Below, piece by piece: positions 1,094 to 2,198 of a stretch of DNA of 3,798 bases. Source of the stretch: Escherichia coli. Its GTDB lineage: Bacteria; Pseudomonadota; Gammaproteobacteria; Enterobacterales; Enterobacteriaceae. Position 1 is the first letter of the stretch. Each line of letters starts with the position of its first letter. A program made the position numbers and the translations under genes. The notes beneath the pieces are model-generated. The model saw only the letters and a program-made list of their open reading frames with translations. It ran no database searches and was not told the origin of the DNA. Where the stretch lies: NCBI RefSeq assembly GCF_003334255.1, contig NZ_QOWU01000115.1, one strand, 5' to 3'.

Positions 1094-1687
1094 ATGATAA
1101 TAGCGATCAGTGCGGTTAAGGATCCGGTATATACCAGGCAGGGATGTATCAACTGTCTGGTGAAACTCACCGGAGTTGACGAGGAGGAGACGGACTGGCT
1201 TCCGTTTACGGCGACACCAACGGACGAAGCCCCTCATGGAAAAGAACTCTGGCAGGCACTGAACTCAGGTCAATATGGTCAAATCGCGCCGTATACTCAA
1301 CCGGAAGATGCGGTGGAAAAAGCCAGACAACAGAAAATTAATGAGATCAACGCCTGGCGTAATGCGATGGAAGCGGCGAACTACACGTTTGAGCACAATG
1401 GGCGTAAATGGGACTACGGGAAGTCAACGCAGACGCGTCTTGAGCCGTCGGTGGCGGCAGCGAAAGCGGGGAAACTGCCGGAGCAGTTTTTCTGGACGGA
1501 TGCGGACAATAATGACGTACCGATGGACGCTGAAACACTGATTGCTCTGAGTGCTGCTGCAGAGCAGGCGATGTTTACCAAAGGTCTGGAAATTCATGTC
1601 AGACAGCGCACGATGAAAAAAGAGATTGAAGCGCTGGGTGATGCGGAAGCTATACTGGCGTATAAGGTCGGCATGGCTGACAGGTGA
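1094..1687 (+). CDS. Tail-fibre-associated protein, probable tail fibre assembly/chaperone-type accessory protein (197 aa); function tentative
   Basis: Complete ORF from ATG 1094 to TGA 1685-1687. GAGG at 1084-1087 sits 6 nt upstream of the ATG, and the start is only 11 nt after the tail-fibre stop, suggesting translational coupling. GC about 50%, typical enterobacterial. Position directly after a tail-fibre gene is where phage assembly/chaperone genes sit. I do not see the classic lambda Tfa / P2 gpG C-terminal signature, so the family is uncertain. Confidence 0.7.
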   Translation: MIIAISAVKDPVYTRQGCINCLVKLTGVDEEETDWLPFTATPTDEAPHGKELWQALNSGQYGQIAPYTQPEDAVEKARQQKINEINAWRNAMEAANYTFEHNGRKWDYGKSTQTRLEPSVAAAKAGKLPEQFFWTDADNNDVPMDAETLIALSAAAEQAMFTKGLEIHVRQRTMKKEIEALGDAEAILAYKVGMADR

Positions 1688-1712
1688 AAAAAAGAGGGGC
1701 GCTCCAGCCCCT
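1687..1712 (-). terminator. Intrinsic-terminator-like hairpin, minus-strand orientation (stem AGGGGC/GCCCCT, loop 6 nt, then U7 on the minus strand)
   Basis: + strand reads A7 (1687-1693), g, aggggc (1695-1700), gctcca, gcccct (1707-1712). On the minus strand this is a GC-rich 6-bp hairpin followed by cTTTTTTT. On the + strand it is followed by tgctacaaag, so there is no U tract for ORF 1094-1687. Confidence 0.45.
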
Positions 1713-1815
1713 TGCTACAAAGCTATGGCTAAATAAAGAATACTCAGGTCGAGGAAATAATCTGGCAATGATAATTAAAGGAGATGCAACGGCCTCCTTC
1801 ACCCCTGTCAAAGAT

Positions 1816-1841
1816 AAAAAACTGGGGAGTGCGTGCTCCCC
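1816..1841 (-). terminator. Intrinsic-terminator-like hairpin, minus-strand orientation (stem GGGGAG/CTCCCC, loop 6 nt, then U6)
   Basis: + strand reads A6 (1816-1821), ct, ggggag (1824-1829), tgcgtg, ctcccc (1836-1841). The minus-strand RNA would be GGGGAGcacgcaCUCCCCagUUUUUU. There is no T tract after the hairpin on the + strand. Confidence 0.45.
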
Positions 1842-1984
1842 GAGAGCATGATACTTGTGGTTGATAGTTATTTTTATCCGGCGACAAAGATATTGAGATG
1901 AGGTCGCGGATGCAATACAGAATTTTCGTATTGCATGGTAACTGCTGATTCCTGAAACTGAAAGTCGTCATGAAACTGTAAGCG

Positions 1985-2011
1985 AAAAAACGGGGAGACG
2001 GCACGCTCCCC
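1985..2011 (-). terminator. Intrinsic-terminator-like hairpin, minus-strand orientation (stem GGGGAG/CTCCCC, loop 8 nt, then U6); paralogous to the hairpin at 1816-1841
   Basis: + strand reads A6 (1985-1990), c, ggggag (1992-1997), acggcacg, ctcccc (2006-2011). It has the same stem sequence and the same upstream A tract as the hairpin 168 bp to the left. Confidence 0.45.
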
Positions 2012-2162
2012 AAGGTCATACATGAGATAGTGGTGTTTTTATAGTCGAAAGAATAATTGCATAAAAAGAGTGTAAATTAAACATTCAGGGGATACAGAAT
2101 TTTCGTAGGCTGAGGGATTGCTGAAAATAATTTAGTGCGTCCTTCAATGGTCACTCAATAGT

Positions 2163-2198
2163 CATCAGATTGTGCTGATGTAAACAGTTAAGCACAAT
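2163..2198. promoter_or_regulatory. Two overlapping, mutually exclusive inverted repeats (candidate operator or RNA switch element)
   Basis: catcag (2163-2168) / ctgatg (2175-2180) with a 6-nt loop. attgtgct (2169-2176) / agcacaat (2191-2198) with a 14-nt loop. The second stem uses the loop and right arm of the first, so both cannot form at once. Confidence 0.3.

Follow-up and report, generated by a model that had tools for sequence, protein, structure and literature searches.

Minus-strand terminators between tfa and eib in an Escherichia coli prophage: a probable boundary function and an old tandem duplication

The tfa-eib spacer and its minus-strand terminators

The question raised by this prophage locus is why a spacer whose annotated neighbours are all read rightward should hold several hairpins that end in U tracts on the opposite strand. 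An initial annotation, made from the letters of the DNA, took these hairpins as the ends of candidate small RNAs encoded on the minus strand. The window, by which we mean the whole 3798-nt stretch that was analysed, was identified from its ORF list and database matches as an E. coli prophage eib locus, and its main parts are the following:

to 1082, + strand: collagen-like tail-fibre gene (ORF list and database matches)
1094-1687, + strand: DUF4376 tail-fibre assembly gene tfa, with its stop codon TGA at 1685-1687
between tfa and eib, 807 bp: tfa-eib spacer
2495-3565, + strand: gene for a YadA-like immunoglobulin-binding adhesin of the Eib type
3' of the eib gene, + strand: orf-156-like gene

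The annotations place all of the annotated neighbours (tfa, eib, orf-156 and orf-60) on the + strand, as had been stated for the flanking genes at the outset. The order of tail-fibre gene, DUF4376 tfa, spacer and YadA-like Eib gene is that of prophage P-EibA, which has the same type of locus, running from tfa (there orf-191A) through the spacer to eib, orf-156 and orf-60, and a spacer 94-96% identical to that of the window. Among 5426 complete E. coli genomes, 27 contained the spacer, at 71 places in all, and it was also present in phages PhiR5 and PhiR12 and in P-EibA (AF151091); strain G1/2 (NZ_CP060083) is of the window type; an exact 20-mer search of contigs representing one genome per species gave no match. 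The single matches returned by a 16-mer search of viral contigs were mostly due to chance, and two metagenome matches (L058 and L086) were rejected as chance similarity in unrelated DNA. A literature search, which the papers by Sandt and Hill fell outside, found no transcriptome of an eib lysogen and no paper on an eib promoter or transcript.

Three hairpins in the spacer share one architecture, and a weaker fourth lies between the first two of them:

1687-1712, - strand: T1, predicted intrinsic terminator of leftward transcription, abutting the tfa stop codon
1776-1801, - strand: H1.5, weaker fourth hairpin with a U-rich tail, from the consensus scan
1816-1841, - strand: T2, predicted intrinsic terminator of leftward transcription with a U6 tail
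1985-2012, - strand: T3, paralogue of T2, predicted intrinsic terminator with a U6 tail

Read on the + strand, T1 consists of an A7 run (1687-1693), a G, the arm AGGGGC (1695-1700), a 6-nt loop and the arm GCCCCT (1707-1712). T2 consists of A6 (1816-1821), CT, GGGGAG (1824-1829), a 6-nt loop and CTCCCC (1836-1841), and T3 of A6 (1985-1990), C, GGGGAG (1992-1997), an 8-nt loop and CTCCCC (2006-2011). This check of the sequence bore out exactly the architecture and coordinates that the initial annotation had given for the three elements. Each has six perfect pairs, five of them G-C, and a loop of 6-8 nt, with energies of -11.6, -11.6 and -12.5 kcal/mol for T1, T2 and T3 (fold z = -2.8 for T2), and on the minus strand the stems are followed at 0-2 nt by U7, U6 and U6, respectively. 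The consensus scan called each of them terminator-like on the minus strand. A strict test (six perfect pairs, at least five G-C, loop of 3-8 nt, at least six T in 8) applied to the whole 3798-nt window was passed by T1, T2 and T3 only, all on the minus strand, and no T run was found 3' of any of the three hairpins on the + strand, so that the scan and the strict test agree with the earlier claim of minus-strand terminators only. When the spacer was shuffled 2000 times with its dinucleotides preserved, an average of 0.000 sites passed on the + strand and 0.001 on the - strand, and no shuffle reached three. By these features T1, T2 and T3 are canonical intrinsic (Rho-independent) terminators, on the minus strand only, and are predicted to terminate transcription in vivo. 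Counting H1.5, three or four terminators are stacked within 330 bp. In the record of P-EibA neither T1 nor T2 is annotated; the only two stem-loops given there are others, one equivalent to window ~2354-2391 and one 3' of eib.

A terminator position directly after tfa genes

The comparison used 53 distinct full-length spacer alleles, drawn from genomes of E. coli, from phage records and viral contigs, and from a scan of metagenomes. The T1 stem AGGGGC/GCCCCT was kept in 52 of the 53, and no allele showed outright loss of T1 or T2. Divergence among the alleles is a mosaic: one allele group differs by 22-40%, only over ~1650-1790, and in this group the T1 loop goes from 6 to 8 nt with a changed sequence, and the flanks diverge too. 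H1.5, which the consensus scan gave as nine pairs, three of them G-C, with the stem AAGGAGG/UCUCCUU, is formed in the divergent alleles by AAGGAGGC/GCCUCCUU (-14.8 kcal/mol) followed by AAAUUUUUAUUA (a U5 tail); its stem is thus kept, and is stronger in the divergent group, though the loop differs. Both the T1 and the H1.5 stems persist where loops and flanks fall to 60-78% identity.

Hairpins at the position of T1 were also found outside the eib locus. In E. coli, related tfa genes that are followed by other cargo (IS66, a leftward ykgJ, a leftward dinI or a different YadA-like gene) all have an A run and a G+C hairpin directly 3' of the stop. When relatives of tfa were surveyed at 61 viral-contig loci, where the 80 nt that follow the stop codon gave 21 distinct contexts, a minus-strand terminator was found within 80 nt of the stop in 18 of the 21 contexts and a plus-strand terminator in two, against a background rate of 10% of 80-nt windows (binomial P ~1e-15, for contexts that are not fully independent). 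In several of the contexts the first downstream gene points leftward and is dinI-like or ykgJ-like; in others it is an eib-like gene that points rightward. Since ~8 different stem sequences occupy this post-tfa position, it is the structure that has been maintained there and not the sequence. Together, these comparisons indicate that T1 is most likely a generic element, the usual terminator at the right-hand end of the tail-fibre module among prophages of this group. That hairpins of the T1 type are kept with differing stems across lineages argues for selection, at least on T1. For annotation this would mean that a reverse-oriented terminator is to be expected directly after the DUF4376 tfa stop in most related prophages.

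Phage lambda has leftward terminators between its late tail genes and the b/att region. Such lambdoid boundary terminators share with the hairpins of the spacer a G+C-rich stem of 6-8 bp, a 4-8-nt loop and a U6-U7 tail on one strand, and also the placement against the stop of the last tail gene, and those of relatives lie downstream of leftward dinI and ykgJ. The present locus differs from them in that three or four terminators are stacked, two of these are paralogous and no leftward gene is annotated, and their function here is predicted from the DNA. The initial annotation had named, as an outcome that would count against small RNAs, that the hairpins are remnants of the 3' ends of deleted leftward protein genes, with stems that are not conserved; for T1 this is close to what was found, because in relatives its counterpart stands downstream of a leftward dinI or ykgJ.

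T2, T3 and the tandem duplication

Downstream of H1.5 the spacer is built of two related units, with these features:

1811-2160: two diverged tandem units, ~1811-1984 and 1980-2160 (global alignment; repeat families D2 and D3)
1842-1905: 64-nt block, invariant or nearly so in the 53 alleles and kept in all three structural forms
1908-1934: palindrome ATGCAATAC-N9-GTATTGCAT, enclosing copy 1 of the 16-mer (1915-1930)
1912-2025: 114-bp segment with the palindrome, 16-mer copy 1 and T3, missing in form B
2092-2107: copy 2 of the 16-mer (ATACAGAATTTTCGTA), at the beginning of the near-invariant block 2092-2143

A diverged tandem duplication of ~170 bp, with identical stems in T2 and T3, had been proposed from the outset, and the alignments support it. 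Each unit contains a terminator, GATAGT..TTTTTAT, the 16-mer and GATTSCTGAAA; the terminators T2 and T3 are spaced 169 nt apart and the two exact copies of the 16-mer ATACAGAATTTTCGTA (1915-1930 and 2092-2107) 177 nt. Aligned globally and collinearly, 1811-1984 and 1980-2160 gave z = 9.7 against shuffles, and the similarity of the units was not significant by itself when terminator and 16-mer were masked. The ~170-177-bp tandem duplication is therefore real, but old and much diverged.

T2 itself was intact in 46 of the 53 alleles and carried a central mismatch in the other seven (-6 to -7 kcal/mol). A relative of it was found in another lineage, L135/L138, where the hairpin right after tfa is GGGGAGC-GGAT-GCTCCCC. 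Taken with ~30-55 nt of downstream sequence, this hairpin could be aligned to both units (z against shuffles of 8.6 for the T2 unit and 7.4 for the T3 unit), and a blastn match between T2 and the L135/L138 post-tfa terminator had 72% identity across 61 nt, with E = 0.003 for a small database. The similarity between T2 and L138 without the hairpin was not significant (z ~1.7), the L135 homologue of T2 carries a stem mismatch, and a blastx comparison with tfa C-termini detected no remains of a tfa gene ahead of T2 or T3 (E > 4). Taken together, T2 is probably a former post-tfa terminator of another eib phage lineage. The other eib-like lineages have either no strong terminator or one between tfa and eib, from which we conclude that the stack is lineage-specific and not needed for eib; the only part of the spacer that they share with the window is the proximal ~170 bp (core 2330-2495).

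The second unit is less constant. T3 was well formed in 24 of the 53 alleles, absent in 18 and decayed in 11 (-2.7 kcal/mol), and is on this account dispensable. Three structural forms were distinguished: form A, with two units, is that of the window; form B, ~a third of the alleles with P-EibA among them, is without 1912-2025, its deletion junctions sharing GA(G)AT microhomology as read from the alignment; and form C, with 177 bp missing, was seen in L078 only and is explained by recombination between the two 16-mers. P-EibA, unlike the window, accordingly has the 114-bp-shorter spacer without T3. Two allele types differ by ~20-28% over ~1934-2091. In contrast to these changes, 1842-1905, 2092-2143 and 2165-2495 are almost invariant across alleles, and the first two were never deleted in the 53. 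The block 1842-1905 is no more conserved than 2165-2495, however, and its conservation can therefore not be separated from recent common ancestry; the exactly kept 16-mers, too, do not exceed the remaining eib-proximal spacer in conservation.

On another reading T2, T3 and H1.5 would be inert relics of old module ends or of deleted leftward cargo, which persist only through the recent spread of the locus. The mosaic divergence with near-identity elsewhere, the decay or deletion of T3, the stem mismatches in seven T2 alleles and in the L135 homologue, and the restriction of the element to so few complete E. coli genomes would all fit this reading. We nevertheless consider it distinctly improbable, given that the T1-type hairpin is maintained with different stems across lineages, which points to selection on T1 at least, that the divergent allele has preserved or strengthened the stem of H1.5, and that outright loss of T1 or T2 is seen in no allele.

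The explanation we favour, with moderate confidence, is that the hairpins are stacked boundary terminators, placed where the tail-fibre module gives way to the eib moron, and that they would block leftward transcription into the tail operon. T1 would keep transcripts that enter on the cargo or att side out of the late tail operon (tfa, stf), which they would otherwise cross in the antisense direction. T2 would have come in with the upstream module of eib at the recombination that placed a different tfa-T1 module ahead of it, and T3 would be a product of the tandem duplication (~170-177 bp) by which the T2 unit was doubled, and would not be needed; this order of recombination events (tfa-T1 module, T2 unit, duplication) is the one we infer from the comparisons above. 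Cargo genes might supply the transcripts to be stopped, and so might promoters within the AT-rich eib region that are spurious or fire divergently, sources of leftward transcription that are familiar from lambdoid phages and from AT-rich acquired DNA in general. As the annotated neighbours are all on the + strand, there is no known leftward gene that feeds the terminators in this lineage. The invariant, never-deleted blocks 1842-1905 and 2092-2143 are more than a bare insulator would need, and both this and the missing leftward gene count against the boundary explanation. If it is true, the hairpins are ordinary phage housekeeping, one-way shields of the late tail operon against antisense transcription that have been multiplied here by module shuffling and local duplication, and they carry the caution that orphan terminators at the mosaic junctions of phages are poor predictors of small-RNA genes.

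Candidate small RNAs and regulatory DNA sites

Prophages of E. coli and Salmonella encode Hfq-dependent small RNAs and anti-sRNAs, among them DicF, AgvB, AsxR and IsrK. Their genes resemble the units of the spacer in having an orphan U-tract terminator in an accessory region with a short conserved sequence upstream, and sometimes in being duplicated. At least one of the units could in this way be a minus-strand small-RNA gene, with transcripts of ~65-100 nt ending at T2 and, where T3 is present, of ~45-140 nt ending there; these would regulate mRNAs of the host or phage, or the expression of eib, in trans. This would account for the orphan U6-U7 terminators that have no ORF upstream of them on the minus strand, for the invariance of block 1842-1905 and its retention in all three structural forms, and for the exactness of the 16-mer in both units though their flanks have diverged. 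The block 1842-1905 would be the body of any RNA that ends at T2.

The promoters such RNAs would need did not stand out. Scoring was for sigma-70 only, with a crude matrix of approximate frequencies whose outcome is a lead only, and neither this matrix nor the consensus scan gave a sigma-70 promoter above shuffle expectation on either strand; the best minus-strand sites scored 9.2, 8.7 and 6.8 with this matrix, against a mean of 9.7 +/- 1.5 for the best site in shuffled spacers. The initial annotation had offered TTGCAT and TATCTT at a 17-bp spacing as a weak minus-strand promoter. These hexamers are present as written, and the weak -10 TATCTT (1892-1887) occurs in all forms, which speaks for a small RNA; but the strength of the promoter is no better than chance (6.8 as against 9.7 +/- 1.5), and its -35 falls in the 114-bp segment and is gone from ~a third of the alleles, those of form B. 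The best minus-strand site (2158-2129) needs an 11-bp insertion that most alleles are without. The candidate minus-strand sites are not conserved across the structural forms, and the sequence upstream of 1911 or 1930 varies among forms A, B and C. The 16-mer is also excluded as a conserved -10, since the two units differ by 9 nt in its distance from the sole upstream motif that they share.

The initial annotation had suggested an Rfam search for a known element, and cmscan with Rfam 15 over both strands of the window gave no match at E <= 10. RNAalifold on the minus strand of 1850-1685 gave no covariation beyond the hairpins (term -0.5); in this run loop indels were misaligned and the arms of T2 were paired with those of T1. 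Being invariant, the block 1842-1905 is uninformative on covariation. Candidate minus-strand RNAs paired with the eib leader and start region in RNAduplex as shuffled sequences do (z = +0.8, +0.8 and -0.7).

Type I toxin-antitoxin loci and tandem paralogous sRNA loci, to which the initial annotation had likened the duplication, also have tandem units with a terminator in each. The present locus differs from the former in that neither a conserved small hydrophobic ORF nor a convergent or overlapping transcript pair could be discerned. The ORFs of the spacer (1688-2261) are intact in only 18-43 of the 53 alleles and are not hydrophobic, and a PHROGs search with them gave no match, so that the toxin-antitoxin analogy was not upheld. 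The PhiR5_2 record annotates two 49-aa minus-strand ORFs in the spacer; given that many alleles have interrupted versions of the spacer ORFs and that PHROGs gave no match, we regard these two as probable gene-caller artefacts.

The claim that the hairpins mark small-RNA genes is thus not sustained by the evidence: T1 is of the generic post-tfa type and T2 a homologue of a post-tfa terminator, which accounts for both as module-end terminators; 29 of the 53 alleles have lost T3 or carry it in decayed form, and the body of its unit exists in two alleles of ~75% identity; neither a promoter above chance nor an Rfam family was found; and the other eib-like lineages do without these units. In comparison with the known prophage small RNAs, the locus is set apart by the same missing Rfam match and above-chance promoter, by the dispensability of one unit and by the simpler account that terminators provide. 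We therefore consider a minus-strand small-RNA gene in the spacer unlikely. The more specific proposal, that the T2 unit (and the T3 unit where intact) is a new, tandem-duplicated eib-prophage small RNA of ~65-140 nt on the minus strand, with its seed in 1842-1905 or in the 16-mer UACGAAAAUUCUGUAU, we consider quite unlikely. Were a small RNA to be made here, it would be a new prophage small RNA beside a virulence-associated adhesin gene, and it might tie eib or host expression to the state of the prophage.

Expression of eib depends on IbrAB. The 16-mer, the palindrome and the invariant blocks might be DNA sites for a regulator of eib, for example in IbrAB-dependent activation or for a silencing complex, with the hairpins incidental. 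Besides the invariance of the blocks, this reading is consistent with the position of 16-mer copy 1 inside a palindrome with 9-bp arms (1908-1934; fold of -10.5 kcal/mol, z = -3.0) and with the resemblance that the 16-mer, taken in inverted orientation, bears to one arm of a conserved inverted repeat (2354-2364/2381-2391; repeat pairs I1 and I13). The elements lie, however, 240-580 bp upstream of the core 2330-2495, the sole part that the other eib-like lineages have in common with the window; a third of the alleles, P-EibA included, are without copy 1 and the palindrome; no further copies of the 16-mer motif were found in the window at up to three mismatches; and the architecture of A run and G+C hairpin would be left unexplained. 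Regulatory sites of this kind are, in our judgement, very improbable. The inverted repeat 2354-2364/2381-2391 adjoins the likely eib promoter, for which the conserved TATAGT at 2345-2350 is a candidate -10 that might also fire divergently.

Known loci of the same type as the present one are those that carry eib in the ECOR-9 prophages P-EibA, C, D and E (GenBank AF151091; Sandt and Hill).

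Conserved region upstream of eib

Comparison across the divergent eib-like lineages showed that positions 2330-2495 are the sole part of the spacer conserved among them, with 63-71% identity. Three elements in this region are invariant across these lineages, namely a T-A-n-n-n-T motif at 2345-2350 (TATAGT in the window), TTCGGAAT at 2384-2391 and TTTGTATACA at 2462-2471. TATAGT is likely the -10 element of the eib promoter, located approximately 145 nt upstream of the ATG. A small open reading frame (ORF) also precedes eib:

2407-2484, + strand: upstream ORF encoding a 25-residue peptide, with a good Shine-Dalgarno sequence (AGGAG, 2397-2401)

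The stop codon of this ORF falls 10 nt short of the eib ATG. An ORF is found at the same position in the divergent eib-like loci L138 and L135 (both with ...CSVCIQIIS) and L121 (MGAEIHQIFFIHPM...), and none is present at this position in L109, L113 and L090. The upstream ORF may encode a leader peptide, in which case the eib mRNA would have to start upstream of 2395.

Inverted repeats between the tandem units and eib

Two inverted repeats were identified between the tandem units and the eib gene:

2164-2176 / 2191-2203: 13-nt inverted repeat with one mismatch and a 14-nt loop; T-rich sequence comes next on the + strand
2354-2364 / 2381-2391: perfect 11-bp inverted repeat, GAAATTCCGAA-N16-TTCGGAATTTC, annotated as a stem_loop in the ECOR-9 prophage record P-EibA (AF151091)

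The first repeat, invariant in 53/53 distinct full-length spacer alleles, lies between the tandem units and the eib control region, and could serve as an operator or, weakly, as a terminator for the + strand. An arm of the second resembles, in inverse orientation, the 16-mer carried by each tandem unit (repeat pairs I1, I9 and I13), and this resemblance hints at a DNA-binding protein common to the two.

Allele-specific and minor features

The remaining features of the locus were as follows:

2144-2164: 11-bp tandem duplication, consensus unit TCAATAGTCAC
16-33, - strand: terminator-like hairpin, GAGGCCCCCCCGGGTCTC then CTTTTT, inside the collagen-like tail-fibre coding region
Spacer in phage records: small hypothetical proteins at 3275-3424 and 3478-3627 in L003 (PhiR5_2), and at 1585-1752 and 1883-2008 in L039/L040

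The best-scoring minus-strand promoter-like site is created by the 11-bp duplication, which is confined to the window, L034 and L036-type alleles, so that most alleles are without this site. The hairpin at 16-33 fails the stricter terminator test (six perfect pairs, at least five of them G-C, a loop of 3-8 nt and at least six T in eight) and probably arises incidentally from the G+C-rich Gly-X-Y repeats. The annotated hypothetical proteins, whose strand varies from one phage record to another, are probably gene-caller artefacts rather than genes, given that their ORFs are broken in many alleles.

Spacer-bearing E. coli genomes usually contained several copies of the spacer, at a median of 3 and a maximum of 5 places, a pattern consistent with the presence of multiple eib prophages in one strain, as in ECOR-9. 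An eib locus of the divergent L138 type was also carried by some of these genomes.
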